Source: Rhodospirillales bacterium (lineage in GTDB: Bacteria > Pseudomonadota > Alphaproteobacteria > MPNO01 > UBA2964). From it: DNA of 64,000 nt. The notes beneath the pieces were generated by a model. It had not been told where the DNA came from, ran no database searches, and was given only the letters and a program-made list of their open reading frames with translations. Shown here in pieces: positions 26,753 through 51,186 of the stretch (position 1 is its first letter; each line of letters starts with the position of its first letter). The translations under genes and the position numbers were made by a program. The stretch spans positions 205,140 through 269,139 of the forward strand of contig JAYOLL010000001.1 in the NCBI GenBank assembly GCA_038120295.1. The letters are read 5' to 3'.

Positions 26753-27799
26753 TTACCCAAGGGTCGGGTCGATGACGATCTTTCCCTTCACGCCGCCGGT
26801 TTCCAGCATGTCGTACGCATCGTGCAGGGCCGCCAGCGGCATAATGTGGTCGATGGCGCAGCTCAGCCGGCCGGTCCTGGCGAAATCTAGCGCCCGTTCG
26901 ACGTTCTTCCGGCTCGAACCGGCTCCGCCGATCACGCGAAGTCGCCGCAGGTACAGCCGCCTTGCATCGAGTGGAACCGTGCCGCCGCCATGCGCGCCGG
27001 CGGTCACGAGCCTGCCGCTGAAGGCGAGACATTCGAATGCTTTCGGCCAGGTTGTCGGGTCCGAGATGTTTTCGAACACGACATCGGCGCCGCGCCCTTC
27101 AGTGATCTTCATGACCTCTTCGACGAGATCCTGTTCGCGGTAATTGACTCCGTGGTCTGCGCCGAGCGAAAGGCCGAGTTCAACGCGTTCGTCCGCACCC
27201 GCGCCGGCGATCACGGTCGCGCCCATCAGCTTCGCGATCTGGATACCGGTGCTGCCAAGCCCGCCGCCGGCGCCCATGACAAGGACGGTTTCGTCCGGTT
27301 TCAGCCCCGCCTTGTCGTCCAGCAGCTGGATCGCCGTCGGGCAGTGCCGCATGAAGACGGCGGCTTCCTGAAACGAGATATTGTCGGGAATGACGCGGAT
27401 GTTGTCAGCCGGCGCGGCGATGTACTCGGCATAGCCGCCCCAGCGCTGGATTCCCATTGTCGAACCCGACCGGCAATCGGCGTCGTTGCCGGCATTGCAA
27501 TAGACGCATTCGCCGCAGGGGGAGCGCGAAATCACGACGACGCGGTCGCCAGTTGAAATGCCTGAAACCTCGTCGCCTGCCTCGACGACCACGCCTGACG
27601 GGTCGACTCCCGGCACTAGGGGAAGGGCATCGGCCTTGCCGTAATGTCCCTCGGCCGCCTGAACGTCGCGCGTGCGGTTGGCCGTAACGGCATGTACCTC
27701 GACGAGCACGCCGTCCGGTCCGATTGCCGGGCGCTCGACTTCCGCCAACCGCATGACGTCGCGCCAGGGGCCGTATTCCCGGATCAGAATTGCTTTCAT
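26753..27799 (-). CDS. Zinc-binding alcohol dehydrogenase (MDR family)
   Basis: 348 aa. Structural-Zn Cys cluster (CGECVYCNAGNDADC). GAGGGLGSTGIQIAKLMG Rossmann motif. Confidence 0.85.
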   Translation of the reverse strand: MKAILIREYGPWRDVMRLAEVERPAIGPDGVLVEVHAVTANRTRDVQAAEGHYGKADALPLVPGVDPSGVVVEAGDEVSGISTGDRVVVISRSPCGECVYCNAGNDADCRSGSTMGIQRWGGYAEYIAAPADNIRVIPDNISFQEAAVFMRHCPTAIQLLDDKAGLKPDETVLVMGAGGGLGSTGIQIAKLMGATVIAGAGADERVELGLSLGADHGVNYREQDLVEEVMKITEGRGADVVFENISDPTTWPKAFECLAFSGRLVTAGAHGGGTVPLDARRLYLRRLRVIGGAGSSRKNVERALDFARTGRLSCAIDHIMPLAALHDAYDMLETGGVKGKIVIDPTLG

Positions 27800-27826
27800 A
27801 TTGGTCGCAGGCTCCCAAAGTCTGCC

Positions 27827-27896
27827 CCAGCCCTCTCCCCCTCCTGACCACCCATCAGGATACTCTCGTGGGTGGTCAGGAGGGGGAGAGGGCTGG
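27827..27896. repeat. Palindromic intergenic repeat, copy 1 (26-bp perfect stem, 18-nt centre)
   Basis: CCAGCCCTCTCCCCCTCCTGACCACC-CATCAGGATACTCTCGTG-GGTGGTCAGGAGGGGGAGAGGGCTGG. It shares the 28-nt core CCACCCATCAGGATACTCTCGTGGGTGG with the element at 49524-49585. Confidence 0.7.
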
Positions 27897-27914
27897 CACC
27901 AAATTCCGCATAAG

Positions 27915-28337
27915 TTACTTCGGCGGACCGACCGACCAGCGGCGGTTGTCTATCTCCAGCACCCCGTCGGCGAGGTTGAGGGTCATCCGCATGTTGCCCT
28001 CGTTGCGCTGCCACGGGATGACGTCGATTTCGCGCTGGCCGTACTTCGTGTAGGGCTCCTGCATGGCAAGCTCGGTTGCTTCCGCCCGGCTGGCGGCGCG
28101 GAAGATCAGCAGCCCGGTGCCGCGCGTCCAACCCTCGTCATCGCGACACGGACCGGCGGCGAACAGGACGCCGCGTCGCTCCATCTCGCAGAGGAAATCA
28201 TGGTGCTCAAGCCGCATCTCGGCCTGCGGCTTGGGCGGCTCCGGTGGGTTTTCGGCGGGGCGCATCATGATCAGGTAACACTGCTCGCGCTGCAGGCCTG
28301 CCATCAGTTCTTCTGCTTTTTTTTCTGCGTCGCTCAT
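27915..28337 (-). CDS. YciI-like domain protein with a C-terminal extension
   Basis: 140 aa. CYLIMMRP...HHDFLCEMERRGVLFAAGP fits the YciI/Dabb pattern. Confidence 0.5.
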   Translation of the reverse strand: MSDAEKKAEELMAGLQREQCYLIMMRPAENPPEPPKPQAEMRLEHHDFLCEMERRGVLFAAGPCRDDEGWTRGTGLLIFRAASRAEATELAMQEPYTKYGQREIDVIPWQRNEGNMRMTLNLADGVLEIDNRRWSVGPPK

Positions 28338-48583: not shown

Positions 48584-49488
48584 GTCGTCCGGTACTGACG
48601 GGCGACCAGCCAGACGCCGGCGACGACCATTGCGGTTCCATACAGGTGGAACGGCTGAAGCGTCTCGTTCAGGAAAAAGATGGCGAGCGCCGATCCGAAG
48701 ACCGGATGCAGGTTCATGAAGGATGATGTCCGGTTGGGACCGATCCGGACGATGCCCTGATTCCAGCAGGCCCAGGCGACGATCGTACTGAACAGGGCGA
48801 CATAGACGAGGCTTCCCGCCATCGTCGGCGTCAGGCTCATGACGGCGCCGGTGGCCAGTTCCGCGGCGTATGCCGGAACCAGCCAGATCGTTCCGCTGAT
48901 GCACAGCACGAAGAGCAGGGTCCAGGGCGACACCCTGATGCCCGCCCGCTTGAACAGGACCGTGTAAAGCGCCCAGCAGATCACGGCGAGAAACATGTAG
49001 AGATCCCCCAGCCGGATATCGAGCGCCCTGAGAACGGCGATGTCGCCCCGCGCGACGACGAATGCTATGCCGATGAACGAGAGCGCGATGCCGGTCGCCT
49101 GCCAGCGATTGATCAGCTCGCGCAGGATCAGCCAGGAAAAGAACACCGCAACCACCGGAACGCCGGCGTTTATAAGGGCGGCGTTGATCACGGTCGTGTG
49201 CTGGACGCAGAAATAGACCAGCGTATTGCCCACGACGAAAAGGAAGCTCAGCGCGGGGATTGAGCCCGGATTTTCTCTGATCTGAGGCCAGTCGCGCCGC
49301 AGCGCCGGGATGACGAAGGGCAGAACCATGGCGGCGGCCAGCGCGTGCCGCCAGAAAGACAGCGCCACCGGCGGCACGTCAAGATTGGCGAGCCGCGCCA
49401 CGATGAAATTCCCGGCCCAGCACAGAATCGCAAGCGAGCAGAGCGCATACGCGGTTGTCTGCGCCGCGCCGGAATTCTGGTCTGACAT
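48580..49488 (-). CDS. DMT superfamily (EamA-like) transporter
   Basis: 302 aa from ATG 49488. Two EamA repeats, 10 predicted TM helices. Confidence 0.75.
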   Translation of the reverse strand: MSDQNSGAAQTTAYALCSLAILCWAGNFIVARLANLDVPPVALSFWRHALAAAMVLPFVIPALRRDWPQIRENPGSIPALSFLFVVGNTLVYFCVQHTTVINAALINAGVPVVAVFFSWLILRELINRWQATGIALSFIGIAFVVARGDIAVLRALDIRLGDLYMFLAVICWALYTVLFKRAGIRVSPWTLLFVLCISGTIWLVPAYAAELATGAVMSLTPTMAGSLVYVALFSTIVAWACWNQGIVRIGPNRTSSFMNLHPVFGSALAIFFLNETLQPFHLYGTAMVVAGVWLVARQYRTT

Positions 49489-49523
49489 GCTAGGACATGA
49501 TCCGCTTACGCGGATGCGCACCG

Positions 49524-49585
49524 GCCCACTCCCCCACCCGGCCACCCACGAGAGTATCCTGATGGGTGGCCGGGTGGGGGAGTGG
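49524..49585. repeat. Palindromic intergenic repeat, copy 2 (23-bp perfect stem, 16-nt centre)
   Basis: CCCACTCCCCCACCCGGCCACCC-ACGAGAGTATCCTGAT-GGGTGGCCGGGTGGGGGAGTGGG. It contains the reverse complement of the 28-nt core shared with 27827-27896. Confidence 0.7.
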
Positions 49586-49612
49586 GCGGGCGCTGTCTAA
49601 CATGACTTCGCG

Positions 49613-50479
49613 CTAGAACGTCGCGCCGGACTCCAGCCAGGCGTCGACGATTTCCTCGCCGGTGGCGAACCACACATCGTCGTGGCCCTTGATGTAATCC
49701 AGCGCCGATTCGAGCGCCCAGATCCGGTGCGAGACGCCGATTACGAATGGGTGCAGGCAGATCGCCATCACTCGACCGGATTCAGCGCCCTCCATGTAAA
49801 GACGGTCGAACTGCCGCCGCATCATCAATTCGAACTCGTCGCTCGATTTGCCGGTGCGGAACTGCGGGAGATCGTTGATCTCGGTCGAGTAGGGGAGCGA
49901 CACCATTTTTCGGTCGCCCGCGTCGATAAAATAAGGCTGGTCGTCATTGACCCAGTCGCACACGTAATCGAGGCCCTCACCGGCCAGATAATCCAGCGTA
50001 TGCCAGGTCTCCTGCAAGCCGGACCCAAGCCAGCCGCGCGGCTTTCGGCCAGTTGTCTGCTCGATCCGGGCGAGTGTGTCGCGTACCAGCTTTTCGTCGC
50101 CTTCGGGCGGGGTTTCATGAAAAGGCCGCGAGTTGCTCTGGTTGTGACCGAGAAACTCCCAGCCGAGCGCCATCGCGTCTTCCATGATCTCCGGGTAGAC
50201 GTCGCAGACCTCGGAGTTGAGCGTGACCGACGCCCGTATGTCGCGCGACGACAGCGCGTCCATGATGCGGAATACCCCGATCCGCGCCCCATAATCGCGC
50301 TGTGACCAGGAGGAAACCTCCGGGACATGGCCGCGCGAGCCCGGCACCACCTCGTTCAGCGGGAAGAACTCGATATTAGGGATCACCCAGACGGCGACAC
50401 GCGCGCCGTTGGGCCATTTCAGGGTCGGTCGCCGGTTGATCGGCGTGTAGGGAAAAGGCCCGTAGCGGCGCGGCTCCAT
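49613..50479 (-). CDS. Polysaccharide deacetylase-family (PuuE/allantoinase-like) hydrolase
   Basis: 288 aa from ATG 50479 (MEPRRYGPFPYTPINRRPTLKWPNGARVAVWV). NodB-like His/Asp motifs (LGHNQ, CLHPFVIG). Confidence 0.7.
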   Translation of the reverse strand: MEPRRYGPFPYTPINRRPTLKWPNGARVAVWVIPNIEFFPLNEVVPGSRGHVPEVSSWSQRDYGARIGVFRIMDALSSRDIRASVTLNSEVCDVYPEIMEDAMALGWEFLGHNQSNSRPFHETPPEGDEKLVRDTLARIEQTTGRKPRGWLGSGLQETWHTLDYLAGEGLDYVCDWVNDDQPYFIDAGDRKMVSLPYSTEINDLPQFRTGKSSDEFELMMRRQFDRLYMEGAESGRVMAICLHPFVIGVSHRIWALESALDYIKGHDDVWFATGEEIVDAWLESGATF

Positions 50480-51186
50480 CAGACGACCTCTTTCAGCCCG
50501 GCGGAGCCGAGCAGCTTCTGGACCACCTCGCCTACATGCATGACGTCGGCGTATTTGTGGTGCATGTCGAACAGGTTCACCTTGTGCGACAGTTCGCTGC
50601 GGTCGAAACAGCATTCCTCGGCCAGAGTAACGTGAATGCCGTTGGAGTAGGCGTCGACGACGGATGCACGGACGCAGCCGGACGTGCTTTCCCCGCACAC
50701 AATCAGGCTCTGGACGCCCATTTGGTGAAGCTGGGCAATCAGCGGCGTACCGTAGAACGCGCTGGCGCGCTGCTTGTAAACAATTAGGTCTCCTTCCTGA
50801 GGCGCGAACTCTTCCTTGATCTGCCAGACATCGTCTGATTTCGGCTTGTTCTGGCGCGAGGTGGCGTAGGCCTTGCCGACATTGGCTTCGGTGCGGGCTT
50901 CCGTGGTCGAATAGATGACAGGAATGCCGACCGCCCGGGCCGCCTTGAACAGGCGTTCAGTCGGCTCGATGGCGTTCCAGGCGTTCTCGCCGCAGGAGCT
51001 GGGGAATTCGCCCATCAGGTCGTGTACCGGCTTTGAACCGCCCTGATAGGCAAGCTGATACAGGTCGATAGCCAGCAACGCCGGCTTTTCGCCGATATAG
51101 GTTTCACGCTCGTAGGCGCTGTAAATATCGAGGACCTTGGGGTCGACGATGTCCTGCCAGCAATGATCTTCGAATTTCGACACCAT
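50479..51186 (-). CDS. Isochorismatase-family cysteine hydrolase (amidase-like)
   Basis: 235 aa from ATG 51186 (MVSKFEDHCW). Catalytic Cys in LIVCGESTSGCVR. Its stop overlaps the next ATG by 1 nt. Confidence 0.75.
   Translation of the reverse strand: MVSKFEDHCWQDIVDPKVLDIYSAYERETYIGEKPALLAIDLYQLAYQGGSKPVHDLMGEFPSSCGENAWNAIEPTERLFKAARAVGIPVIYSTTEARTEANVGKAYATSRQNKPKSDDVWQIKEEFAPQEGDLIVYKQRASAFYGTPLIAQLHQMGVQSLIVCGESTSGCVRASVVDAYSNGIHVTLAEECCFDRSELSHKVNLFDMHHKYADVMHVGEVVQKLLGSAGLKEVV

Follow-up and report, generated by a model that had tools for sequence, protein, structure and literature searches.

The 64,000-nucleotide stretch of Rhodospirillales bacterium DNA analysed here at its full length (the window; contig JAYOLL010000001.1, positions 205,140 to 269,139) contains two copies of a long palindrome, both dispersed in core metabolic operons; the second of them (copy 2) lies between the stop codon of a deacetylase-family gene (49613-49615, minus strand) and the start codon of an EamA/DMT transporter gene (49486-49488), in agreement with the original prediction, which had placed it between the deacetylase end (49613) and the DMT start (49488). 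The deacetylase gene encodes a protein of 288 amino acids (aa) of the polysaccharide-deacetylase/PuuE type and ends in a TAG stop. The palindrome is probably the core of a non-autonomous transposable element, a MITE (transposable element of the miniature inverted-repeat type) of about 123 nucleotides (nt) extending over window positions 49490-49616.

The sequence CCCACTCCCCCACCCGGCCACCC, present at 49525-49547 on the plus strand and at 49564-49586 on the minus strand, forms a perfect 23-bp stem around a 16-nt centre (49548-49563), ACGAGAGTATCCTGAT, which is itself a quasi-palindrome around TA; a match of this kind was obtained in none of 100 dinucleotide-preserving shuffles of the window. Both the stem and the enclosed centre, as earlier described, can be read directly in the sequence, with the coordinates then assigned (49524-49585) being one base too low. 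As to the extent of the structure, the 23-bp stem stands, but the inverted repeat is longer, with 31-nt arms (49518-49548 / 49563-49593) that are 94% complementary, and the putative mobile unit comprises about 123 nt and not 62. The full palindrome of copy 2 measures 82 nt, two 33-nt arms around the 16-nt centre, and the whole unit is composed of CTAG, a 21-nt arm, the palindrome, a 16-nt arm and CTAG. The features of both copies are as follows:

49490..49493, no strand: left CTAG junction, 1 nt from the EamA start codon; its TA (49491-49492) is a putative target duplication
49494..49514, plus strand: long outer arm, 21 nt, bearing a mini-hairpin and the motif CTTACGCGGA, common to copy 1
49500-49515: mini-hairpin ATCCGC-TTAC-GCGGAT, with a GUAA tetraloop (GNRA type) on the transcribed minus strand
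49515..49547, plus strand: 5' C-rich arm of the 82-nt palindrome, with the perfect portion at 49525-49547
49548..49563, plus strand: 16-nt centre ACGAGAGTATCCTGAT, the same as in copy 1, where it is oriented the other way
49564..49596, plus strand: 3' G-rich arm of the 82-nt palindrome, fitting the G3N1-7 x4 (G-quadruplex) motif
49597..49612, plus strand: short outer arm, 16 nt
49613..49616, no strand: right CTAG junction; its TA (49614-49615) is a putative target duplication, and CTA at 49613-49615 is the deacetylase TAG stop on the minus strand
27821..27902, minus strand: copy 1 of the 82-nt palindrome, with a loop that reads ACGAGAGTATCCTGAT on the minus strand

The fold of copy 2 is far beyond chance, both as RNA (-97 kcal/mol, z = -12) and as DNA (-53 kcal/mol, z = -9.5). 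A covariance model built from 50 copies of the family described below recognises, within the window, these two palindromes and no third (81.6 and 78.3 bits, with 17 bits and E = 0.27 for the next-best match); Rfam gives no match in the window at the gathering threshold and, on the region with a permissive E-value, only generic sub-threshold hairpins (miRNA precursors). Copy 1, the sole comparable structure in the window, has perfect 28-nt arms (27827-27854 / 27869-27896) and is located between the stop codon of a YCII gene (27915-27917) and the start codon of an alcohol-dehydrogenase (ADH) gene (27797-27799). In its middle stands ATCAGGATACTCTCGT, exactly reverse-complementary to the centre of copy 2, so that copy 2 is indeed a reversed repeat of copy 1, as had been claimed; the two are inverted as whole units, both bearing CTTAYGCGGA 0-6 nt outside the 5' arm when the loop is read as ACGAGAGTATCCTGAT. 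The only open reading frames (ORFs) across the MITE units are spurious, as already suspected: HESILMGG is seen in an ORF and HQDTLVGG corresponds to CAT CAG GAT ACT CTC GTG GGT GGC on the other strand, the two peptides being two readings of the palindrome centre plus GGGTGG; HQDTLVGG is also present in an ORF of a further locus of the family (L037).

The palindrome belongs to a large family. A scan with a degenerate, structure-aware pattern, covering one genome per species, identified at least 119 stretches; the family statistics given here cover the matches listed, and the conservation of the inner stem is partly built in by the search pattern. In all, more than 150 related copies were found, from many alphaproteobacterial orders, the Sphingomonadales among them. 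The matches listed are nearly all from Alphaproteobacteria, both on the sphingomonad side (Sphingomonas, Novosphingobium, Sphingopyxis, Sphingobium, Hephaestia, Erythrobacter, Qipengyuania) and among other hosts (Rhodospirillales, Kiloniellales, Minwuia, Geminicoccaceae, Acetobacteraceae/Neoroseomonas/Rhodopila, Filomicrobium, Kordiimonadales, Denitrobaculum, Roseospira); one Streptomyces match was discarded as low-complexity noise. IMG/VR contributes 41 further contigs with the palindrome, while a blastn search of the region against plasmids matches the hairpin only, in three sphingomonad plasmids and always unannotated. The family palindrome consists of 33 + about 16 + 33 nt with the consensus arm GCGGCACCGGCCCGCTCCCCCACCCGGCCACCC, and its pairing ends sharply at 33 bp, 15-16 bp past the part fixed by the pattern. 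In already examined family loci the covariance model adds seven copies independent of the pattern, and about 10 extra copies were found per 0.76 Mb of host DNA, which suggests a copy number of tens per genome; the loop subfamilies are genome-specific, and decayed and deleted copies exist. Neither the sequence nor a description of the family was found in the literature searched (sphingomonad MITEs, REP, RAYT, TIRYT and IS1031 MITEs included); the family, unusually widespread in Alphaproteobacteria, is apparently undescribed, whereas elements of the MITE kind are well known.

Variants affecting the palindrome itself were encountered among the family loci. In Hephaestia caeni (L037:3021-3062) and in two Sphingomonas koreensis loci (L065:4013-4054, L051:3188-3229) a mini-hairpin of 35 nt, tNtaRCCCCRCAAAGT-aNt-ACTTTGYGGGGacccc, interrupts one palindrome arm, each time at the same position, and is accompanied by a duplication of 7 bp (GTGGGGG); in appearance it is another tiny element, with the 82-nt palindrome as its specific target. 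In a metagenome-assembled genome of the Acetobacteraceae (L078:5681-5787) the C-rich arm is partly tandem-duplicated directly before a complete palindrome.

The boundaries of the mobile unit emerge from the flanks of the family. CTAG is present in 41 of 222 flanks, against 2.2% expected (its background in the family loci is 0.39 per kb), and lies 16 nt from the palindrome on its short side and 22 nt on its long side; TA is most frequent at offsets 17 and 23-24. The long side differs from the short one by about 6 additional nt, which create a small tetraloop hairpin. Copy 2 fits this arrangement, with CTAG 21 nt out on one side (49490-49493) and 16 nt out on the other (49613-49616), and a TCCGC-GTAA-GCGGA hairpin adjoins the palindrome in L063 too, with analogues in L012, L053, L082, L098 and L120. 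The base just inside TA, derived from the element, is C in 58 of 84 cases, while the base just outside, derived from the target, is G in 46 and A in 20 of the 84; since CTAA exceeds TTAG in the flanks (13 versus 4) and the inner C is dominant and more conserved than the outer base, a 4-bp YTAR duplication was set aside and a TA duplication beside 5'-GAG...CTC-3' tips is favoured. The outer inverted arms end in tips of the form 5'-GAG(Y)C...G(N)CTC-3' that abut TA (within CTAG) or TNA, the tip G-N-CTC being about 20-fold enriched at offsets 12/18 (unit of about 122 nt) or 28/33 (unit of about 153 nt). In sphingomonads the palindromes are bracketed by small hairpins with A/T-tract stems, after which comes (C)AAAC(A/G)G(A/C)CTC directly followed by TNA; the G-N-CTC tip thus recurs here at offsets 28/33, and the units measure about 153 nt. 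Where TNA pairs are readable, three of four are direct repeats (TCA/TCA, TAA/TAA, TGA/TGA), and CTAG (TA) is found on both sides in at least eight copies, copy 2 included.

Some loci illustrate the modularity of these ends. The locus L172:7538-7591 holds a perfect palindrome of only 48 nt, GAGCCTGTTTGGAAAATGCGC-GGAAGA-GCGCATTTTCCAAACAGGCTC, a minimal unit with TTA/TTA on its two sides and no central palindrome; since its tips are those of the 153-nt units, the tips alone seem to define a mobile unit. In two Sphingobium plasmids (L180:240-405, L181:243-400) the terminal modules are intact and the central palindrome is decayed, so that searches with the core sequence miss both. In Novosphingobium (L001, L018, L021, L104) the flanking hairpins are combined differently from copy to copy, in a BIME-like mosaic, and the modules (GAAAATCCGC..GCGGATTTT, AAAATGCCC..GGGCATTTT, AAATTCGC..GCGAATTT) resemble CGTC-type REPs (Di Nocera 2013).

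The comparison with relatives bears directly on mobility. Metagenomic contigs of the window's species carry copy 2 essentially unchanged; in L127-L129, whose deacetylase protein is 93% identical, the site is empty, with a gene gap of 13 nt compared to 124 nt in the window and the sequence TTC TAG CATCGCCTTCCGC ATG, containing a single CTAG. The site of copy 1 (YCII / zinc alcohol-dehydrogenase) is also found empty, the gap being 2 nt in L132 and 11 nt in L133, compared to 115 nt in the window's species. Because the same gene pairs nearly abut in relatives, both window copies are lineage-specific arrivals in tight operon junctions. The mobility suspected in the original prediction thus gains support from the CTAG on both sides of copy 2 and from the sites empty in relatives, and the comparison of flanking sites that it had proposed as a sign of target duplication yields CTAG on both sides of copy 2 and one CTAG at the empty site of a close relative. 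Loss occurs as well: a plasmid of S. parapaucimobilis (L177:890-915) retains an arm remnant of about 19 nt, CCGTCCGGCTCCCCTTCCC, where an S. sanguinis plasmid (L002:1498-1579) has the intact palindrome with its flanking hairpins; the S. parapaucimobilis copy was lost by deletion, and the site is not a naive one. For the FD7 plasmid no relative was found for a filled/empty comparison.

A further body of evidence comes from the position of the elements with respect to genes, as called by our own crude caller based on G+C content at third codon positions (GC3). Genes adjoining an element end in TAG, TGA and TAA in 38, 38 and 20 cases, compared to 153, 375 and 93 for the other genes of the same loci (Fisher p = 1.5e-4), and the TAG stops of the neighbours cluster at 19 and 25-26 nt from the palindrome; such an enrichment at a fixed distance is a prediction of insertion into TA by a unit starting in G, and was then observed. 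From stop to element the median distance is 24.5 nt, the corresponding figure for the next start being 110 nt; convergent gaps are enriched (33 of 84, versus a background of 19%) and divergent gaps are depleted. TA makes up 1.5% of the dinucleotides in the family loci, and in GC-rich genomes it should lie largely in stop codons. With TA rare in a genome of 61-68% GC and concentrated in stop codons, elements inserting into TA would pile up at gene ends, where the first G of the element would restore a TAG stop; TA insertion therefore explains the proximity to stops, the convergent enrichment and the divergent depletion without invoking function.

The arms themselves are kept matched. At pattern-free positions they covary, with 96% pairing and 14 pairs changed on both sides (110 cells); this is equalled in none of 500 shuffles, and when the structure is shifted by 1-3 columns no more than 8 such cells are obtained. 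Among the copies listed, position 22 is occupied by A:T in 61, G:C in 27 and T:A in 22, with 7 unpaired, and position 30 by A:T in 70, T:A in 21 and G:C in 7; in more divergent copies, found independently of the search pattern, the arms are still perfectly matched. Mismatches on the sense strand comprise 26 G·U and 33 A·C, with no G·U bias, and the orientation of the loop relative to transcription shows no preference (19 versus 15); selection at the RNA level on one strand is accordingly unlikely, and the pairing appears to be maintained alike for the two strands, for which the DNA level is the simplest setting. The matching may be caused by the need of transposition for a hairpin or cruciform, or by templated correction of quasi-palindromes. 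In a variant at L018:5370-5480 about 15 nt (GTTTGGATTCAGGCG / CGCCGGAGTCCAATTG) replace positions 14-16, one version per arm, and are largely complementary, which hints that changes are copied from arm to arm. Within the arms, hardly any variation is seen at the C positions of the 5' arm, which are G in the 3' arm, while the spacers swap A:T, T:A and G:C and almost never C:G; this pattern of C/G tracts is kept across at least six orders, and, with the tracts invariant and the spacers variable, 110 of 117 3' arms therefore fit the G-quadruplex motif.

Taken as a MITE, the unit is short (below about 300 bp), non-coding and multicopy, has terminal inverted repeats, target duplications (in a small sample) and presence/absence polymorphism. 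A DDE transposase supplied in trans would have cut the unit and pasted it into the TA of the CTAG at the deacetylase stop, the TA being duplicated on insertion. The TNA/TA duplications and the GAG tips favour an enzyme of the IS5 / PIF-Harbinger kind (like those of the IS1031 or IS427 groups), which would be the most likely source, an IS630-like enzyme being less likely. Insertion sequences (ISs) of the IS1031 and IS427 groups have GAG ends and TNA duplications and are common in Alphaproteobacteria. Members of the PIF/Harbinger-IS5 superfamily are described as generating 3-bp or TA duplications (PMC12730594).

Several observations weigh against this interpretation. No autonomous parent with the same ends was found in the 1.39 Mb of DNA examined or on 72,556 plasmids. 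The direct repeats rest on few sites (three of four, plus one, plus the CTAG pairs); the strict tip motif occurs in only about 18% of copies, and the tips of copy 2 are degenerate, with GCGC and GTCC beside TA and not GNCTC. Filled and empty flanks are too diverged for base-exact junctions, the comparison for copy 2 requires a further difference of 12 nt, and around copy 1 no clean TA/TA can be read. Across orders, moreover, conservation of the 82-nt core exceeds what a passive internal segment would be expected to show. As to the missing parent, a plasmid blastn search with the consensus and the terminal module returned the MITE itself only, the palindrome being present in 3 of the 72,556 records; solitary arms in the DNA examined are degenerate or interrupted hairpins, and tip pairs lie there only 48 or about 153 nt apart, none at the length of an IS.

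Among the other readings, derivation from an IS630/Tc1-mariner element with strict TA duplication, instead of an IS5/Harbinger-like one, is unlikely. IS630 inserts into CTAG and duplicates TA, and TA duplications are common to many bacterial MITEs (Correia, RUP, ERIC, Nezha). MITEs of this kind are listed in PMC3733652. The subtype to which copy 2 belongs has C-TA-G on both sides at fixed offsets, as this derivation would have it; yet the sphingomonad-type copies, with homologous tips (GAGYCTGTTTGG vs GAGYCTTTCCGG), have the 3-bp TNA repeats TCA, TAA, TGA and TTA, which are not made by IS630-type enzymes, so that a strict TA does not hold for all members. A quite doubtful place is to be given to a REPIN-like origin, in which the 33-nt arms would be the repeats that flank a single-copy gene for a RAYT-like tyrosine (Y1, HUH) transposase ('TIRYT', TnpA_REP subclass 2.1) and the palindrome a doublet copied via single-stranded hairpins. 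The shape of a long hairpin whose arms are conserved and whose centre is freer, the genome-specific subfamilies of low-to-moderate copy number (tens per genome), the persistence over several orders and the lack of a classical parent IS on the 72,556 plasmids all agree with such an origin, and the strand-symmetric pairing suits single-stranded DNA hairpins. Many arms also contain GGGGAGAG-like strings fitting GGGGWSAS, the motif reported for the terminal inverted repeats (TIRs) flanking TIRYT genes, of which some families may be dimers (PMC3733652; PMC6006769). The consensus arm GGGGAGCG, however, misfits GGGGWSAS, and the arm (GCGGCACCGGCCCGCT...) has no GTAG or CGTC tag at the stem foot; HUH/Y1 transposition proceeds without target duplication, whereas TNA/TA repeats and GAG tips are observed; a search for Y1 signatures in the 1.39 Mb examined was negative, a tblastn search with E. 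coli RayT against plasmids and chromids gave no alphaproteobacterial match, and the family sequence is absent from the supplements of the TIRYT paper. Nor do the paired palindromes of L028 and L037 enclose transposase genes: by eye only, the genes lying there appear to encode a YtoQ-like small protein and a PpiD/SurA-like one.

A structure selected by the host, be it a site for transcript 3' ends, for RNase III or for attenuation, a palindrome bound by protein, or a switch between hairpin and G-quadruplex/i-motif, would account for the tight position 3' of stops and the depletion from divergent promoter regions, for the C/G tracts kept over at least six orders with spacers almost never C:G, for the G-quadruplex (G4) motif of 110 of the 117 3' arms and for the very stable fold, whose outer stem covers the EamA AUG. 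This account is nevertheless improbable: the orientation to transcription is random and the sense strand has no excess of G·U over A·C; there is neither a U-tract nor an Rfam family match; the post-stop position is explained by TA targeting, which predicted the observed TAG enrichment; the window copies are recent, and the operon junctions concerned function in relatives that lack them; copies decay and are deleted; finally, a 33-bp hairpin would be expected to outcompete G4 thermodynamically. Equally slight is the chance that the 82-nt core is a conserved functional module persisting largely vertically over at least six orders and recognised by a domesticated single-copy transposase or a host factor. 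The fixed C-/G-tracts, the spacers that are almost never C and the G-quadruplex/i-motif-competent arm point that way; if this were true, the family would represent a long-lived symbiosis like that of REPIN and RAYT with a different enzyme, possibly with hairpin-quadruplex switching or arm-to-arm copying. A chance palindrome, a locally evolved terminator or an integron attC site can be practically dismissed. A GC-rich hairpin 3' of a gene and one GTTAGAC (GTTRRRY-like) in the short arm of copy 2 are what such proposals have in their favour; chance is contradicted by the outcome of the window shuffles (0/100) and by the more than 150 homologous copies in other genomes, a terminator by the absence of a T-run in the flanks and of any terminator-like site at the element in the scan, and attC by the absence of a paired R''/R' (RYYYAAC ... 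GTTRRRY) core and of a cassette array or integrase nearby. The distribution of the family refutes all three.

Regarded as a MITE, the family shares much with ERIC/IRU of enterobacteria and Correia/NEMIS of Neisseria: these too are about 100-160 nt long, non-coding and made of a long imperfect-to-perfect palindrome, insert into TA with duplication, are gene-adjacent and co-transcribed, and have an expected role as RNA hairpins (RNase III/RNase E sites or stabilisers). Unlike them, the new family has no sequence similarity to either, has a longer and more perfect central stem (33 bp) and a three-hairpin modularity, includes some subtypes with 3-bp TNA duplications and resides in alphaproteobacterial hosts. 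With the REP/BIME/REPIN-RAYT systems it has in common palindromes just past stops, genome-specific subfamilies, compensated stem changes, the lack of an ordinary parent IS and, in sphingomonads, a mosaic with other small hairpin modules, but it differs from them in having target duplications, no GTAG/CGTC tag, arms that are not small palindromes and tens rather than hundreds of copies per genome, with no RAYT gene found in the 1.39 Mb and no alphaproteobacterial one on plasmids. The TIRs of TIRtrons (TIRYT; Di Nocera 2013, Quentin 2018) are likewise long, G-rich inverted repeats, moderately abundant and often dimers, and some arms of the new family fit their GGGGWSAS; the consensus arm is off-motif, the 1.39 Mb yielded no Y1 gene, and the flanking duplications favour a DDE enzyme. 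The CGTC-tagged alpha-proteobacterial REPs (Di Nocera 2013) are, by description, like the sphingomonad flanking hairpins (a stem of 8-11 bp with A/T tracts, a 3-6 nt loop and a ...TTTCCA tail) and are similarly devoid of a known transposase; they are units of 20-40 nt, and the 82-nt palindrome is not one of them. IS5 (IS1031/IS427)/PIF-Harbinger elements share the TNA or TA duplications and, in the case of the IS groups, the GAG tips; no IS with matching ends was found in the DNA examined or on the plasmids, and the 82-nt internal palindrome has no known counterpart.

A likely consequence for the host would lie at the RNA level. The inserted unit, if co-transcribed, would give a very stable hairpin with a 33-bp stem; the predicted minus-strand RNA of the unit adopts a three-way fold composed of an outer stem, this hairpin and the GUAA mini-hairpin. 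In the predicted outer stem (49486-49509 with 49597-49612) the EamA start region, ..CCUAGCAUG, pairs with CAUGUUAG.. just past the upstream stop, and according to this model the stem could occlude the initiation of EamA translation. Since the hairpins of REP, ERIC and Correia act in this manner, the hairpin is expected by analogy to shield the upstream cistron from 3' exonucleases, to offer a substrate to RNase III and to block in part read-through and the translational coupling of EamA, in either orientation.

As far as the neighbouring gene is concerned, the mechanically called deacetylase ORF of 361 aa (window 49613-50698) is over-extended: its homologues, labelled by their sources as allantoinase or PgdA/CDA1-family deacetylase, are 288-289 aa long and cover 80% of the ORF, and the full 361-aa ORF has no Pfam match while several homologues carry PF01522. 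Elsewhere in the window, at 1448-1489, AAAAGAAAAACCCCCGGGC / GCCCGGGGGTTTTGTTTTT form a terminator-like palindrome with A- and T-tracts, which could work bidirectionally and is unrelated to the MITE.

For the annotation of alphaproteobacterial genomes, these results provide a defined repeat family with a covariance model, boundaries, tips and a target site, a family that gives rise to spurious ORFs, creates or rewrites TAG stops and places a hairpin of -97 kcal/mol inside tight operon junctions. It is a clean natural case of a TA target preference that, in a GC-rich genome, directs mobile DNA to stop codons, and illustrates how long perfect palindromes may keep their arms matched without selection at the RNA level. 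If the core turned out to act as a functional module served by an enzyme of its own, the concept of intragenomic sequence populations that persist and are inherited vertically, developed for REPIN/RAYT, would extend to a new class of elements.

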